Under the pieces are notes generated by a model. It saw only the letters and a program-made list of their open reading frames with translations, was not told the origin of the DNA and did not search any database. Below, one piece after another: positions 2,273 to 10,010 of a stretch of DNA of 10,010 nucleotides. The DNA lies in the UHGV virus genome UHGV-0197950. One strand, given 5' to 3'. Source of the DNA: a virus. Each line of letters starts with the position of its first letter. Position 1 is the stretch's first letter. Position numbers and translations under genes: made by a program.

Positions 2273-2299
2273 AGGGGAGCATATGACATATAAAACAAA

Positions 2300-2319
2300 G
2301 GCGACCGGGGGCGGTCGCC
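2300..2319 (-). terminator. GC-rich perfect hairpin (GGCGACCG-GGGG-CGGTCGCC); possible terminator for leftward transcription from the repressor gene, or for alpA
   Basis: 8-bp perfect stem at 2300-2307 / 2312-2319. On the minus strand it is followed by a U-rich run (CTTTGTTTTA); on the plus strand it lies 28 nt after the alpA stop with no U-tract. Confidence 0.35.
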
Positions 2320-2623
2320 AATGGATACACACTAAACTTGAACGCATCACCAACAATGCCACATTTGCGGCTGGTGGGCAATGTGATCAGTCAGATTTGG
2401 TTCGTTCCAAGGTTTGCAACGAGAGCTTTTTCCTGTGCTCTTTAAGGAATTTCTCAAGAGCAAACGAACAAGGTGCGAATCTTTCTGATTCATGTTCATG
2501 CGCTATATTTTTGCGTCGTCTCTTACGAGTTGGTGATGGTGTTTTGGTTGATTCTGTGTCGCTCATGGTGCTGTCCTGTAAAGCAATGCGCCTGCGTTCC
2601 TCAAACTATGGCGCTGATAGTGG

Positions 2624-2929
2624 CTATTCCTGCTCTTTGACCTTGCGTCGCTGGAGTTCTTCACGCGCGACGGTGACGAGTTGCCCGATCTCCTCGGCGG
2701 CTTTGACTCCGATTTTTTCCACCTGCGCTAGGGCATCGAGCGAAGAAACCAGGAGGTTTTCTCCGCTTCCTTCTGCCTGGCGGCGGGCGATTTCACCGCG
2801 CATGGCGGTTACTATGAATCCGGCGTTGCTTTCACCGTCCAGTTTTACGGATTCCATGCCTTCAATAACATCATGCGGGATCCGAGCTGTCAGTGATTGT
2901 GATTTTGCGTTTTTTGAACCTGTAGCCAT
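2624..2929 (-). CDS. Putative ribbon-helix-helix-type DNA-binding repressor (candidate island immunity/maintenance regulator)
   Basis: 101 aa from ATG (minus) at 2929 with SD GAGAGGA 6 nt upstream: MATGSKNAKSQSLTARIPHDVIEGMESVKLDGESNAGFIVTAMRGEIARRQ..., i.e. an N-terminal beta-strand/helix pattern typical of RHH (Arc/CopG-like) proteins and a charged helical C-terminus. The track start at 2944 is a TTG. Divergent from a region with two palindromic operators. Family assignment is by pattern only. Confidence 0.55.
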   Translation of the reverse strand: MATGSKNAKSQSLTARIPHDVIEGMESVKLDGESNAGFIVTAMRGEIARRQAEGSGENLLVSSLDALAQVEKIGVKAAEEIGQLVTVAREELQRRKVKEQE

Positions 2930-2950
2930 CTGTAATCCTCTCAATGAAAG

Positions 2951-3027
2951 TGTAAGACAATATACACATAAAAAGTCTTACATAAAAGCATTGACATGTA
3001 AGCCACCTATAAATAAAGTTGCTTACA
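2951..3027. promoter_or_regulatory. Divergent control region with two palindromic operators (TGTAAGAC-N16-GTCTTACA and TGTAAGC-N17-GCTTACA) overlapping a TTGACA -35 element
   Basis: Read directly: 2951-2958 tgtaagac / 2975-2982 gtcttaca; 2997-2003 tgtaagc / 3021-3027 gcttaca; TTGACA at 2991-2996 with a -10-like TAAAGT 17 nt downstream (3014-3019) reading towards the + strand gene at 3126. Confidence 0.55.
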
Positions 3028-3125
3028 CCTTGTTAATGCAAGGTGCAGAAACGACGAAACCCCGCACTGTAGGAGCAGTAACGGGGCTTCTAACCACCAA
3101 CGATAGCAAGATTATCGAGGCAGCT

Positions 3126-3329
3126 ATGAGAAATCATACCATACACCCGCAAGGGCGGGACTCGTACAACCTGAATAAATACATCTGGCGTTTTATCGCC
3201 CTGAGCACCGCACAACCGCGCGTGATTCACATCGTGGCCACCAGCGAACAGGAAGCACGCCAGCAATCCCCGGCTGGCTGCGTGATGGTATTCGCCGCCC
3301 GTATTCGTCAGGGGGTGTGCCATGCCTGA
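3126..3329 (+). CDS. Small hypothetical protein (67 aa); first gene of the rightward operon; possibly an Icd-like cell-division-inhibitor-family protein
   Basis: ATG 3126 with GAGG SD 5 nt upstream, in frame with the end of the long 2283-3329 ORF: MRNHTIHPQGRDSYNLNKYIWRFIALSTAQPRVIHIVATSEQEARQQSPAGCVMVFAARIRQGVCHA. The Icd-like label is a recollection, not verified. Confidence 0.45.
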   Translation: MRNHTIHPQGRDSYNLNKYIWRFIALSTAQPRVIHIVATSEQEARQQSPAGCVMVFAARIRQGVCHA

Positions 3330-3642
3330 TATGTCAAATTACCAGTACCTGATTAATCCGCATTTTAACTGTGAGCATGATATTGCTAAAAAGGTTTATT
3401 CCGCTGCGGATGGGGCTACTGACAATATATCAATGGCTGTTGCGTCAATTGGTAGCCTGATGTGGCATGCGTCAGAAAATGAGGACTATGACGAAAAGGC
3501 CATGCGCATTGATATGGGTAATATCGGTTTGTTACTGGCAATGCTTGGACATTTTGATATTTCGTTACGGTGCACCATTGAAAATGCCACAGATGCATTA
3601 AATGCTATAAAGAAAGCGAATACTGATTCAAATCGGGGATAA
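3322..3642 (+). CDS. Hypothetical protein (106 aa)
   Basis: ORF overlapping the upstream gene stop by 8 nt (ATG 3322; alternative ATG 3331), i.e. operon-coupled. Protein-like composition; no motif recognised. Confidence 0.55.
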   Translation: MPDMSNYQYLINPHFNCEHDIAKKVYSAADGATDNISMAVASIGSLMWHASENEDYDEKAMRIDMGNIGLLLAMLGHFDISLRCTIENATDALNAIKKANTDSNRG

Positions 3643-3648
3643 ATAATC

Positions 3649-3948
3649 ATGAGAACGTATTTATCTGGCTTGACTGCCAGCGGTTATGCACACCCCCAAA
3701 TTATCCCCGGCGCTATTTATCTGGATAAGAACGGTAACAGAGTAACGGTAAAAGAACTGATGTTTGACCGTGTGTATTTTATCCGTGATGGCTATTCATT
3801 TCTTAGTTCGCTGAACGTGGAGATCTTTATTTGCAGATTCCGGCGGGAAATCCCGACTTCCAGAAATAACCATGTGTCACGTGTGGATGTGGATAAAAAA
3901 CTACAGGAACTGAAAAACATGATTGCCGCGTGGAGAGAGCAGAAATGA
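3649..3948 (+). CDS. Hypothetical protein (99 aa)
   Basis: ATG 3649 preceded by GGGGA. Its stop TGA 3946-3948 overlaps ATG 3945 of the replication gene (ATGA coupling). No motif recognised. Confidence 0.55.
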   Translation: MRTYLSGLTASGYAHPQIIPGAIYLDKNGNRVTVKELMFDRVYFIRDGYSFLSSLNVEIFICRFRREIPTSRNNHVSRVDVDKKLQELKNMIAAWREQK

Positions 3949-5762
3949 AAAAAGCGCCAAATTTAAAACACCAGCCGCGTGACAAAATGACGGAAGTCAT
4001 CATTTTTGCGGGTAGTGATGCGTGGGCACATGCGAAGCAGTGGCAGGAACAGGACGGGCGACTGGCTGGCGATAACGTGCCACCTGTCTGGCTTGGAGAG
4101 CAACAACTTGCCGAACTGGACAACCTGCAAATCGTACCGGACGGACGCTATCGCGTGCGTCTCTACCAGGCGGGGTTATTGCGTCCGGGGCTTGTTAATA
4201 CCATCGGGCAGAAACTGGCAGCGGCAGGTGTCAGGGATGCTGATTATTACCCTGAAGGAATGCACAGCCAGAAACGGGAGAACTGGCGCGAATATCTGGA
4301 ACGTGAACGGGCAGAGCAGGCGGAAAAGAAAAAGGTAGTTGAACTGCCTGTAAAGAAAAAAGAGCGGGTAAAAGACGATAACGCTTCATCACTGGCGCTT
4401 AACCAGATGGGAGCAAGTCAACGCGGCGAAGTTCTCCTGGCACATTATGGCGGTGAACTGGCGATTCATGCTGACTCTGACACTGTTCACCATTACAACG
4501 GCGTTGTATGGGAGCCAGTACAGGATAAAGAATTACAGCGAGCTATGGCACAGATTTTCATTGATGCGGAGATCAGCTATTCGCAGAACGCCATTAAATC
4601 GGCGGTCGATACCATGAAGTTAAGTTTGCCTGTTATGGGGAATACAGCCCGTAACCTGATTGGATTCAGTAACGGGGTATTTGATACCAGAACAGGTAAT
4701 TTTCGGGAGCATAACAAAAACGACTGGTTGTTAATTGCCAGTGAATTACCTTTCAGCCCACCAGCAGAGGGGGAAACGCTGGCAACACATGCGCCGAATT
4801 TCTGGAAGTGGTTACGCCGTTCGGTGGCTGAGAATGACCGCAAGGCGGATCGCGTACTGGCTGCATTATTCATGGTGCTGGCGAACCGGTACGACTGGCA
4901 GTTATTCATTGAGGTAACAGGTCCAGGGGGAAGTGGTAAAAGCGTGATGGCGGAGATTTGCACCATGCTGGCGGGTAAGGTTAATACAGTATCAGCGAGC
5001 ATGAAGGCGCTGGAAGATGCAAGGGAACGCGCGTTAGTGGTTGGCTTTTCGCTGATTATCATGCCGGATATGACCCGCTACGCTGGTGATGGGGCGGGAA
5101 TTAAGGCTATTACAGGCGGTGACAAGGTGGCAATCGACCCAAAACATAAAGCCCCATATTCAACGCGTATCCCGGCAGTAGTGCTGGCGGTTAACAATAA
5201 CGCTATGTCATTCAGTGACCGCAGTGGGGGGATCTCGCGACGTCGGGTGATATTCAATTTTTCGGAAGTTGTACCGGAGAACGAACGCGATTCAATGCTG
5301 GCGGAAAAAATAGAAGGTGAGCTGGCGGTAGTGATTCGTCATCTGCTTACACGGTTTGCTGACCAGGACGAAGCCAGACGCCTTTTATATGAGCAGCAGA
5401 AATCAGAAGAAGCACTCGCGATAAAGCGTGAAGGTGATTCGCTGGTGGACTTCTGCGGCTATCTCATGGCGTCGGTAATGTGTGATGGCCTGTTAGTGGG
5501 TAATGCTGAAATTGTGCCATTCAGCCCGCGCAGGTATCTCTATCATGCCTATCTGGCTTATATGAAGGCACATGGGTTTGGTAAACCTGTAACACTGACG
5601 CGCTTCGGTAAAGATATGCCGGGGGCAATGGCGGAATATGGCAGGGAGTATATGAAACGGAAAACGAAGCACGGTTTGCGTTCAAACGTGACACTGACGG
5701 AGGAATCAGAAGACTGGATGCCATCATGTGTATCGGTCACTAATGACGATAGCAAAAATTAA
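3945..5762 (+). CDS. Replication initiation protein, phage/plasmid primase-helicase family (P-loop NTPase; pri-rep-like)
   Basis: 605 aa from ATG 3945 (SD GGAGAGAG 3932-3939); the track start 3930 is a GTG. Walker A motif GPGGSGKS (EVTGPGGSGKSVMAE) and a downstream hydrophobic stretch plus acidic residues (LVVGFSLIIMPD) consistent with Walker B. Size and position immediately upstream of an iteron origin match satellite/PICI pri-rep genes. Confidence 0.8.
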   Translation: MKKAPNLKHQPRDKMTEVIIFAGSDAWAHAKQWQEQDGRLAGDNVPPVWLGEQQLAELDNLQIVPDGRYRVRLYQAGLLRPGLVNTIGQKLAAAGVRDADYYPEGMHSQKRENWREYLERERAEQAEKKKVVELPVKKKERVKDDNASSLALNQMGASQRGEVLLAHYGGELAIHADSDTVHHYNGVVWEPVQDKELQRAMAQIFIDAEISYSQNAIKSAVDTMKLSLPVMGNTARNLIGFSNGVFDTRTGNFREHNKNDWLLIASELPFSPPAEGETLATHAPNFWKWLRRSVAENDRKADRVLAALFMVLANRYDWQLFIEVTGPGGSGKSVMAEICTMLAGKVNTVSASMKALEDARERALVVGFSLIIMPDMTRYAGDGAGIKAITGGDKVAIDPKHKAPYSTRIPAVVLAVNNNAMSFSDRSGGISRRRVIFNFSEVVPENERDSMLAEKIEGELAVVIRHLLTRFADQDEARRLLYEQQKSEEALAIKREGDSLVDFCGYLMASVMCDGLLVGNAEIVPFSPRRYLYHAYLAYMKAHGFGKPVTLTRFGKDMPGAMAEYGREYMKRKTKHGLRSNVTLTEESEDWMPSCVSVTNDDSKN

Positions 5763-5776
5763 ACTTATGGAATAAC

Positions 5777-6006
5777 TGTTCACCACTGTTCACCCTGTCA
5801 TAAATATTTTTTATATCAGTATATTATAGGGTGAACAGTTATTTATGAACTGTTCACCAAACTATTCACTGTTCACCTTTTTGATTGTTTATTGAGCTTC
5901 AAGGGTGAACAGTGGTGAACAGTTGGTGAATAGTTTTTGTGAAACTGTTCACCCCTTAACATTATGAATTAAAAGATAAAATATCAAAAGGTGAACAGGT
6001 GAAGGG
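5777..6006. repeat. Iteron array / putative replication origin: about 10 copies of TGTTCACC (both orientations) flanking an AT-rich stretch
   Basis: TGTTCACC at 5777, 5787, 5851, 5870, 5946; GGTGAACA at 5830, 5904, 5914, 5990; degenerate copies at 5861, 5925, 5998; AT-rich 5795-5828. Lies immediately after the replication gene stop (5762). Confidence 0.75.
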
Positions 6007-6049
6007 TTAAAACGCAAAAATTTTAATTTACTGCTGTGAGATAAAGCCT

Positions 6050-6295
6050 ATGACAGCGAAGCACATAAAAAAATCACAATCGCACGCCCTTGATTTGACG
6101 GAACACTGGTTAAGGGTGTCGATAAAAATCATCGACCGCAACGCCGGGGAAGGATATGCGAAAGCACATCCCGAACTGATTAGCGCATTCATGACAACGG
6201 CAGCTGCAAACTTTGCCACGCTGACAGAACGGGAGATTGCCGAAGCGGAACAGGTGACAACCATCAACGTTAAAACCGGAGAGCAGACAGCATGA
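6050..6295 (+). CDS. Hypothetical protein (81 aa), translationally coupled to ssb
   Basis: ATG 6050; stop TGA 6293-6295 overlaps ssb ATG 6292 (ATGA). No motif recognised. Confidence 0.5.
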   Translation: MTAKHIKKSQSHALDLTEHWLRVSIKIIDRNAGEGYAKAHPELISAFMTTAAANFATLTEREIAEAEQVTTINVKTGEQTA

Positions 6296-6714
6296 CAGCA
6301 CAGATAGCGGCTTACGGACGGCTGGTGGCTGATCCGCAGTTAAAGACCACCAGCAAGGGTACACAAATGGCGATGGCTAGTATGGCGGTCCCCCTTCCGT
6401 GCAGCCAGGCAGATGACGGAACGGCGATGATGTGGTTATCCGTCCTGGCGTTTGGCAGACAGGCCGACGCACTGGCAAAACACCACAAAGGCGAACTGGT
6501 GAGCGTGGCGGGTAACATGCAGGTAAGCCAGTGGACAGGCCAGAACGGCGAAACGCGGCAGGGCTGGCAGGTTATCGCAGACAGCGTGATCAGTGCGCGA
6601 ACAGCGCGACCGGGCGGCAAAAAAGGCCAGCAGGGGCAGGCCACTGACGCACTGAACAGGGCAAAACAACAGTCGGGGAATGATGATCCGTACGGCGATA
6701 ATATACCGTTTTAA
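6292..6714 (+). CDS. ssb: Single-stranded DNA-binding protein (SSB-like, OB-fold) with acidic C-terminal tip ...DDPYGDNIPF
   Basis: 140 aa; N-terminal region follows the E. coli SSB pattern (IAAYGRLVADPQLKTTSKG... / WLSVLAFGRQADALAKHHKGELVSVAGNMQVSQWTGQNGETRQGWQVIADSV), a Gly/Gln-rich linker, and a C-terminal IPF tail resembling SSB DDDIPF. Confidence 0.8.
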   Translation: MTAQIAAYGRLVADPQLKTTSKGTQMAMASMAVPLPCSQADDGTAMMWLSVLAFGRQADALAKHHKGELVSVAGNMQVSQWTGQNGETRQGWQVIADSVISARTARPGGKKGQQGQATDALNRAKQQSGNDDPYGDNIPF

Positions 6715-8334: not shown

Positions 8335-8718
8335 ATGCAGAATCATTACAATGACCTTAAGCCAATTGCCGAAATGATGTATCCGGATCCAGCAGTAGAG
8401 GAATTAAAGGCTATTGCTGACAAAATGCGTTTAAGTGAACGCCTTGTTGATATGAATCAGGTGATGGAACTTACTACCCTTAGCCGTCGCACATTGCTAA
8501 ACCTTGAGGCTCGCGGAGAGTTCCCCGAACGCGTACAGGTTACGGAAGGGCGTAAGGCCTGGTATTTAAGTGAAGTGATCGACTGGATAAACAATATTCC
8601 TCGAGCTTCTGAATATTGCCGCGTACCTGTCCCAAAAAAGCCAGATGCGGCGCTATGCCTCAAGATTGAGCGTGTACGTCGCAATGCACGGGATGGTCGC
8701 TATAAGTTGATTGGTTGA
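8335..8718 (+). CDS. AlpA-type HTH DNA-binding protein with N-terminal extension (127 aa); candidate late/packaging regulator
   Basis: SD AAAGGGGGA; C-terminal half has an AlpA-like HTH (MELTTLSRRTLLNLEARGEFPERVQVTEGRKAWYLSEVIDWINN). Sits between the decoration gene and cos. Confidence 0.7.
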   Translation: MQNHYNDLKPIAEMMYPDPAVEELKAIADKMRLSERLVDMNQVMELTTLSRRTLLNLEARGEFPERVQVTEGRKAWYLSEVIDWINNIPRASEYCRVPVPKKPDAALCLKIERVRRNARDGRYKLIG

Positions 8719-9502: not shown

Positions 9503-9698
9503 TCAGCGTTGCGCTGGTGGGCGTTATGCGTCAGTGATGAACAAAAAACAATCGAAATCGACACCGAAAAATAAAACATCAAGTCATATCAATATATTGC
9601 ATTGGTGGTGATGACGAATAAAAATGCAAAAACTAGCCTTTTTCCGCGATGCTCCCGCCCCGTGGCAGGGCACCCCACAAGGAGGACCCGCCATCACT

Positions 9699-10010
9699 AT
9701 GGAGGCCATGACCATGACCATGACCATGACCGAGACCGAAGCGCTCGGGATAATCCGCAGTATTACCGGAATCAGCCAGCAGGCTGGCGAACAGGAGGCC
9801 ACGCAGCCGGACAGCGTGATAGCCGAAAATTACGCGCGTGTTGTTGCTGAGGTGATGCGCCGTGATGGTATTGAGCTTAACGGCGTGGATATGCGCAACA
9901 TACGAACCAGAGTCCTTGAGTTGCTGGCATACCGTCGCCGTTCTCAACAACGGAGGGAGAGCGCGAAAAGTACTTACCAGTGGAAGAAGCCGGAACGACT
10001 GCGGCGGTAA
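9699..10010 (+). CDS. Hypothetical protein (~103 aa) beginning in a hexanucleotide repeat (MEAMTMTMTMTETE...)
   Basis: ORF ends TAA 10008-10010. Candidate starts are ATG 9699 (SD AAGGAGGA 9679-9686) or ATG 9714 (SD GGAGG 9701-9705). The track start 9624 lies in probable non-coding DNA. No confident family assignment. Confidence 0.5.
   Translation: MEAMTMTMTMTETEALGIIRSITGISQQAGEQEATQPDSVIAENYARVVAEVMRRDGIELNGVDMRNIRTRVLELLAYRRRSQQRRESAKSTYQWKKPERLRR
9707..9730 (+). repeat. (CATGAC)4 hexanucleotide tandem repeat, with a degenerate fifth unit to 9736, at the 5' end of the last gene
   Basis: Read directly: catgac x4 at 9707-9730 then cgagac; encodes MT dipeptide repeats and provides four in-frame ATG codons. 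Confidence 0.7.

Follow-up and report, generated by a model that had tools for sequence, protein, structure and literature searches.

A DUF4222/RgdR-family gene and an exchangeable small gene lead into the replication initiator gene of an Escherichia coli phage-inducible chromosomal island

The stretch of DNA analysed here, hereafter the window, is the 10,010-nucleotide (nt) virus genome UHGV-0197950, and our subject is a pair of small open reading frames (ORFs) that lead into its replication gene: ORF106 (ATG 3322 to TAA 3642, 106 amino acids (aa)) and ORF99 (ATG 3649 to TGA 3948, 99 aa), both on the + strand. The window is an EcCICFT073-like Escherichia coli phage-inducible chromosomal island (PICI), a phage satellite, and the two genes are cistrons 2 and 3 of its replication operon, which runs from a promoter-like site through an Icd-like gene, ORF106, ORF99 and Rep to the iterons of the origin. 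ORF99 proved to be a divergent allele of DUF4222/RgdR, a conserved core gene of E. coli PICIs and an already described family, and in this family of islands the DUF4222 and initiator genes are fixed partners, whichever of four Rep types follows. In contrast, ORF106 occupies a variable slot that differs between islands, and it alone of the two genes behaves like an accessory. A preliminary description of this DNA had treated the two as an equivalent pair of unknown accessory genes; this view had to be given up, since ORF99 is a conserved core gene of a known family and only ORF106 is accessory-like. The reading that we favour as a whole, and to which we assign a probability of about one half, is that of a PICI replication operon in which ORF99 would be an accessory of the initiator and ORF106 an exchangeable accessory.

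Both ORFs are real genes under purifying selection. Positions 2900-4200 of the window are 100% identical to several E. coli chromosomes, and RefSeq/PGAP annotates there exactly the four coding sequences Icd-like, ORF106, ORF99 and Rep. Of 5426 complete E. coli genomes, 474 contain the DNA of ORF106, with 513 occurrences in all, and the counts for the DNA of ORF99 are the same. Both frames are intact in six diverged copies, where the junction sequences are also essentially invariant; two of the copies differ by one or two bases just upstream of the ORF106 start. For most pairs, Nei-Gojobori dN/dS values were 0.06-0.37 for ORF106 and 0.16-0.33 for ORF99, while values of 0.5-0.7 were obtained in a few pairs, each with fewer than 12 substitutions. 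Coordinates, RefSeq coding sequences and conservation thus agree with the preliminary description that genes for a 106-aa and a 99-aa product lie at 3322-3948. The small gene that it had placed upstream, at 3126, is also present (3126-3329, + strand, cistron 1; RefSeq coding sequence) and encodes an Icd-like small basic protein of 67 aa and pI 10.3 (NF033153, E 5.3e-20; phrog_6196, E 1.4e-42), and the satellite context and the tight polycistron leading into the pri-rep gene are as it had proposed. Its further claim, that these genes are coupled through overlapping stop and start codons, is correct for the junctions at either end and incorrect for the one between the two small genes. The Icd-like gene and ORF106 overlap by 8 nt (ATGCCTGA), and ORF99 and Rep by 4 nt (ATGA), the Rep start being ATG 3945 and not GTG 3930, whereas ORF106 and ORF99 do not overlap and are separated by a 6-nt spacer (TAAATAATCATG), with a GGGGA Shine-Dalgarno-like motif within the end of ORF106. 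A purine-rich Shine-Dalgarno-like motif precedes each start. The promoter candidate, sigma-70-like and located in the divergent intergenic region (2991-3019, + strand, TTGACA-17-TAAAGT), agrees with the consensus at 10 of 12 positions, which is a consensus match only, and no terminator-like site was found on the + strand between this candidate and position 6350.

ORF99 passes the Pfam DUF4222 model (PF13973) with 60.9 bits against a gathering cut-off of 27 (E 8.8e-17, residues 17-67), and also matches phrog_285. The earlier statement that the two products have no recognisable motifs is thus wrong for ORF99, a member of the RgdR family, and right for ORF106, which has no Pfam or NCBIfam match and for which the sole family match is phrog_15327 (E 2e-71), of no known function. 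When ORF99 was aligned with the DUF4222 protein at the OI-51 position of O157:H7, 33% of the residues were identical, without gaps over all 99 residues (E 2e-15); the O157:H7 strain used was FRIK944, whose protein differs from the published ECs1581 at a few residues and is therefore called an orthologue. In its length of ~99 aa, its location in a PICI immediately upstream of the replication gene and its full-length alignment, ORF99 conforms to the RgdR family (Flockhart et al. 2012). The RGD motif of residues 20-22 is absent, the ORF99 residues being P20-G21-A22, and these positions vary among many E. coli alleles (NGD, PGD, CGD, KGD). Retained are the S6-G7-[LF]-T-A-S-G12 motif, in the form SGLTASG, together with K35 and the DUF4222 core residues D26, G29, V32, V42, R46, G48, Y49, F60 and F64. 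The AlphaFold2 (AF2) model of ORF99, built from a shallow alignment of 40 sequences (predicted local distance difference test (pLDDT) 79.8), predicts a disordered N-terminus, then a small barrel of four strands (residues 23-56), a short helix (57-63) and a C-terminal helix (78-98). Against the PDB, Foldseek gave weak matches (E of at least 0.03), consistently to small, SH3-like beta-barrels with a nucleic-acid-binding or adaptor function (Spt5 KOW, PWWP, Tudor, a domain of TnsB and the C-terminal domain of UvrD). A search of the PDB by sequence matched no solved structure, and a first scan of genome contigs with the ORF99 alignment confirmed no locus. Overall, ORF99 is a small basic protein (pI 9.8) of the DUF4222/RgdR family with an SGLTASG N-terminus, an SH3/KOW/Tudor-like beta-barrel and an amphipathic C-terminal helix.

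RgdR (ECs1581) has been reported in all analysed E. coli PICIs (PMC6092414), and has been described as activating LEE1 and the type III secretion system (T3SS), repressing motility and binding DNA weakly and non-specifically (PMC3378721), so that the published effects of the DUF4222/RgdR family concern type III secretion and motility of the host (PMC3378721, PMC6092414). At the nucleotide level, a block TCTGGCTTNACTGCCAG at 3664-3680 of the window, covering codons 6-11 of DUF4222 genes and forming an imperfect palindrome (CTGGC-N6-GCCAG), is kept in 70 of 89 loci though DUF4222 genes are otherwise only ~49% identical, and its variants are mostly non-synonymous single changes. When it was considered as a possible RNA or DNA element, exact identity runs proved no longer than in shuffles; because the block coincides with the codons of the SG[LF]TASG peptide, a nucleotide-level function is not established.

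The association of DUF4222 genes with replication initiators was followed in 80 IMG/VR loci carrying PICI-type DUF4222 genes. In 79 of these 80 loci the DUF4222 stop and the Rep start overlap by 4 nt, and the Rep genes that follow encode four catalytic modules, namely two D5-primase types, an AAA_25 RepA-like helicase and DUF927. These four unrelated catalytic types have in common an N-terminal Rep domain of ~125 aa (window 3945-4320), which is 72% identical between the window and the AAA_25 helicase at the OI-51 position. Its identity to the window copy ranges from 40% to 100%, a recombination joint lies near residue 130, and the domain has no Pfam or PDB match. Gene order and overlap of DUF4222 and Rep are therefore conserved, and particular allele combinations are not. 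In the early-right operon of lambdoid phages there is a shorter DUF4222 ORF of 59-73 aa, corresponding to the barrel only. It usually shares 11 nt with the start of an O/DnaD-like initiator gene, as seen in SfIV, SfII, Klebsiella prophages and 79 of 80 close IMG/VR relatives, while in phage EKP1 it overlaps by 4 nt the gene of a helix-turn-helix protein, which is followed by a toprim protein. The overlap with whatever initiator gene the island carries, together with phage homologues at the same place, suggests as a hypothesis a replication-linked role for DUF4222.

Some of these phage ORFs are unannotated, at 3438-3659 in Shigella phage SfIV (L007), 3480-3659 in a further locus (L008) and 3001-3180 in ST64B (L009), and were confirmed by Pfam (E 3e-19 and 9e-15). 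The SfIV ORF lies out of frame within the 3' part of gp40, called 'putative protein YmfM' in another record, and shows the 11-nt overlap with the replication gene start; the ST64B ORF sits within the over-long annotated Rha-type gene sb41.

Immediately 5' of DUF4222, the same 80 loci carry one of three unrelated small-protein families, which account for 56 loci (h77, of 77 aa), 19 loci (ORF106) and 4 loci (a 66-aa family). The slot gene and DUF4222 mostly lie 5-6 nt apart, some loci having a spacer of 4, 7 or 16-17 nt and one a spacer of 30 nt. Homology between ORF106 and h77 was considered and rejected because the hhalign probability is 0.3%. The DUF4222 allele that accompanies ORF106 is of the ORF99 type in 17 loci and RgdR-like in 2, and the islands that carry ORF106 differ in Rep type (three in all), integrase and packaging module. 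Distant ORF106 homologues (29-42% identity) occupy the equivalent position in other PICI-like islands, where genes other than DUF4222 come next and Rep is of the AAA_25 or DUF927 kind. RgdR-type islands show three or four chained small acidic genes between Icd-like and DUF4222 (L003 7811-8703; L004 6424-7313; L005 7427-8317); these genes combine the same segments as mosaics, with differing fusions and splits, a 154-aa protein of L003 being equal to the 73-aa plus 77-aa proteins of L005 and L004.

ORF106 itself belongs to a narrow orphan family of small acidic proteins predicted to form a two-helix hairpin. A word-indexed search found E. coli relatives only, and an exhaustive HMMER search of 1.84 billion cluster representatives gave 15 matches, of which three are true small homologues (29-42% identity). 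Large proteins of 1200-1650 aa were also among the matches; the one inspected, P0058, was rejected as a chance match of YDEK..GN[IL]GLL to a TPR_12-type repeat, with 12 matched stretches, amplified by repeat number, and P0060 shows the same 12-stretch pattern, the comparison being one of pattern only. The protein is acidic (pI 4.8), and its AF2 model, built from a shallow alignment of 8 sequences (mean pLDDT 77.6), places helices at residues 19-51 and 58-104. Foldseek searches of the PDB and BFVD with this model gave nothing below E 0.15 and generic hairpins only, and a search of the PDB by sequence, with ORF106 or with the Rep N-terminal domain, found nothing. A WXG100/EsxB-like identity was discarded (Foldseek E 0.67-1.7), the turn region HASENEDYD being without WXG. 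An accessory, protein-binding role of ORF106 is plausible.

In the favoured reading, ORF99 would be translated together with Rep by way of the stop/start overlap, and would serve the initiator, at or near the origin, as an accessory that binds nucleic acid or works as an adaptor. Basal rep-ori function would not require it and, like RgdR, it could spill over onto host transcription. More tentatively, ORF106 may be a non-enzymatic protein-binding modulator, exchangeable and aimed at a host, helper or island protein, and it might, again with low confidence, stand outside the core replication machinery. A series of observations weighs against this reading. As far as sequence comparison goes, the link between DUF4222 and replication is positional only, and neither gene was assigned to a housekeeping family of replication accessories. 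For plasmid maintenance, an EcCICFT073 construct described as consisting of the rep gene and ori was sufficient (PMC6092414), and DUF4222 is therefore probably not essential for initiation. DUF4222 alleles, Rep N-terminal domains and catalytic modules reassort almost freely (Spearman 0.14-0.29), so that co-evolution lends no support to a specific contact between DUF4222 and Rep. In ST64B/Stx-type phages the DUF4222 ORF stands before a Rha/antirepressor gene and not before an initiator, and the 79 of 80 phage loci with the initiator overlap were counted as one lineage because they are close relatives. On the structural side, the Foldseek matches are weak for both proteins (E of at least 0.03 for ORF99 and at least 0.15 for ORF106), the folding alignments are shallow (40 and 8 sequences, respectively), and since a helical hairpin is not diagnostic of any function, that of ORF106 gives no functional assignment. 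A wider form of the idea would make all DUF4222 proteins, RgdR included, dedicated cofactors of the initiator, small SH3/KOW-like adaptors that the stop/start overlap would keep in a fixed ratio to the initiator in PICIs and lambdoid phages, with the virulence activity of RgdR as a side effect of DNA or protein binding and with the acidic slot hairpins tuning initiation or disarming a host or helper factor; we think it unlikely to be right.

Several other explanations have to be set against the favoured one. ORF99 could primarily regulate the transcription of host or island genes, as RgdR does, its place before rep reflecting early co-expression only. This would fit the published RgdR phenotypes and weak DNA binding (PMC3378721), the match of ORF99 to RgdR in length and architecture with K35 kept, the frequent contacts of KOW/Tudor-like barrels with the transcription machinery, and the phages that put DUF4222 before Rha regulators instead of initiators. 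However, the R20-G21-D22 of RgdR is replaced in ORF99 by P20-G21-A22, and a functional importance of residue 20 has been reported (PMC3378721); the enterocyte effacement locus (LEE) is missing from most carriers of the family, so that T3SS control is not the ancestral role; and it is left unexplained why the 4-nt overlap with Rep should be invariant whichever of the four Rep types is present. A primarily regulatory ORF99 is accordingly possible, if on the unlikely side. The preliminary description had seen in both small proteins candidate effectors of the satellite for helper interference or host takeover, and the filling of the ORF106 slot by unrelated small acidic proteins, as is typical for exchangeable accessory or counter-defence genes, the lack of an enzymatic fold in ORF106 and the reprogramming of host gene expression by RgdR-type proteins all point that way. 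Yet ORF99 is core and not accessory, the PADLOC-DB 2.0 defence models match neither ORF106 nor ORF99 (nor the Icd-like protein), and the documented interference mechanism of PICIs is that of Rpp in the packaging module, in a paper that makes no mention of ORF106- or ORF99-type genes (PMC6739421). For the pair as a whole, we consider this proposal doubtful.

The order of genes in phage P4 suggests another candidate. P4 Cnr regulates alpha, and ORF106, ORF99 or both could be functional analogues of Cnr that bind the initiator and limit copy number, given that they hold a position like that of P4 ORF106/cnr, immediately 5' of alpha, and that ORF99 overlaps Rep by 4 nt, which can be read as translational coupling. 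Neither protein resembles Cnr/DUF5375 in sequence, no co-variation with Rep was seen, and the weak Cnr relative of the island, if there is any, would be the divergent YlcI/YnfO gene, so that we rate a Cnr-like function as improbable. The faintest of the candidates, to our mind, is that ORF106 neutralises or modulates the upstream Icd-like cell-division inhibitor, as the acidic partner of a basic toxic protein. The two proteins are indeed oppositely charged, and their 8-nt overlap is kept in the E. coli copies and in a 40%-identical homologue of another island (L095); but unrelated small genes come after Icd-like in other islands, and the ORF106 homologues of two further islands (L099 and L103) come after small proteins that are not Icd-like.

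The remainder of the window bears out its identity, and the locus is largely ordinary, that is, a typical PICI replication operon. Gram-negative PICIs of the EcCICFT073 type (Fillol-Salom et al. 2018) are marked by int, alpA and pri-rep, by an origin of iterons placed directly 3' of rep, and by a small packaging module that includes neither tail nor lysis genes. All of these are present in the window, with a packaging module consisting of the major head, head decoration and TerS genes only, and the right-hand end of the island lies outside the window. The same layout is found in the prototype EcCICFT073 and in the O157:H7 island at the OI-51 position, and agrees with the Gram-negative PICI description (PMC6092414). 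In the matching E. coli chromosome the island lies between cspD/yljB and clpS. The tyrosine integrase gene (405-1643, + strand; Pfam/RefSeq annotation) is followed by a gene for an AlpA-family regulator (2063-2272, + strand; PF05930, E 3.6e-16; RefSeq coding sequence) and by the divergently transcribed YlcI/YnfO-family gene (2624-2944, - strand; NF041551, E 5.6e-20; RefSeq coding sequence 2624-2929). The Pri-Rep initiator (3945-5762, + strand, 605 aa) consists of the N-terminal ~125-aa domain followed by a D5_N/DUF5906/Pox_D5 primase-helicase. Directly 3' of rep lies the replication origin candidate (5774-6008), with ~11 iterons GGTGAACAG in both orientations and AT-rich spacers, an organisation that is the one described for Gram-negative PICI origins (PMC6092414). 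Next come a hypothetical 81-aa gene (phrog_1231) and a gene for a single-stranded DNA-binding protein (SSB), which overlap each other by 4 nt (6050-6714, + strand), and a second AlpA-like regulator gene (8335-8718; phrog_2790, E 2e-48) is located between the head-decoration and TerS genes.

Some further features of the window were recorded in passing. The frame of the Icd-like gene (+ strand, 2283-3329) stays open for 348 codons upstream, crossing the divergent promoter region and, on the opposite strand, the YlcI/YnfO gene; at the Icd-like position of related islands, PGAP annotates pseudogenes, longer or partial, as 'Icd-like' or 'ash family'. A scan of the whole window against Rfam (E up to 1) gave two chance matches only, and no c4/CI-like immunity RNA near the Icd-like gene. 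A perfect hexanucleotide repeat (CCATGA x 4.3) at 9706-9731, within an ORF starting at 9624 (phrog_1561, function not assigned), encodes a (Met-Thr)n run and is possibly a slippage-prone tract.

RgdR is cited as a PICI-borne virulence regulator of enterohaemorrhagic E. coli, but what it natively does for the satellite has so far been left undefined, and beyond the RgdR work we found no publication on the small genes that precede pri-rep. What the present analysis adds is a second RgdR allelic class, common and RGD-less, which is paired with ORF106 in 8.7% of the complete E. coli genomes, a coupling between DUF4222 genes and the genes of replication initiators that is general, and an exchangeable slot upstream of DUF4222, which may be a site where satellites swap accessory proteins.

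Among known systems, the likeness of ORF106 to generic two-helix hairpins (WXG100/EsxB, the TraM anti-activator, HP0062, Rop and UvsY) lies in a ~100-aa hairpin (TM-score normalised to the query, Foldseek TMq, 0.45-0.68); with all E-values above 0.3 and no sequence relation, it is a likeness of fold class and not of family. The left operon of P4 (kil/Icd-like, epsilon, ORF151, cnr, alpha) resembles that of the window in beginning with an Icd/Kil-like gene, continuing with small proteins and ending in a primase-helicase, but P4 epsilon (PF25738), ORF151 and Cnr (DUF5375) show no sequence or profile similarity to ORF106 or ORF99. Identity with Cnr was rejected, BLASTP giving no alignment for ORF106 and E 7.8 for ORF99 and the Pfam scan being without DUF5375. 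The same applies to epsilon, with no Pfam match, nothing by BLASTP for ORF106 and non-significant fragments for ORF99 (E 12 and 27), and an apparent resemblance of ORF99 to P4 ORF151 was dismissed at an hhalign probability of 1.3%. As a separate observation, the YlcI/YnfO protein of the window resembles P4 Cnr/DUF5375 weakly (26% over 83 aa, with E 5e-4 against a database of five sequences), and its gene, instead of those upstream of rep, may be the island's Cnr relative, if there is one.

Closer to ORF99 are the DUF4222 ORFs of lambdoid phages (SfIV/SfII, mEp390, Klebsiella prophages and ST64B), often unannotated or hidden under ymfM-like or Rha annotation, which share its beta-barrel core with all nine invariant residues (D26 to F64, as listed above) and its place in an early operon, commonly overlapping the start of the replication initiator gene. 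Unlike ORF99, they are only 59-73 aa long and are without the SGLTASG N-terminus and the C-terminal helix. The closest counterpart is RgdR itself (ECs1581 of O157:H7 O-island 51/CP-933C; C1493 is the EcCICFT073 orthologue), which like ORF99 is a 99-aa DUF4222 protein with SG[LF]TASG, K35 and a basic C-terminal helix. ORF99 differs from it as a separate allelic class, with PGA and not RGD at residues 20-22 and preceded by ORF106 and not by the 77-aa h77, while both genes hold the same position in their islands and alike overlap the replication initiator gene there by 4 nt.

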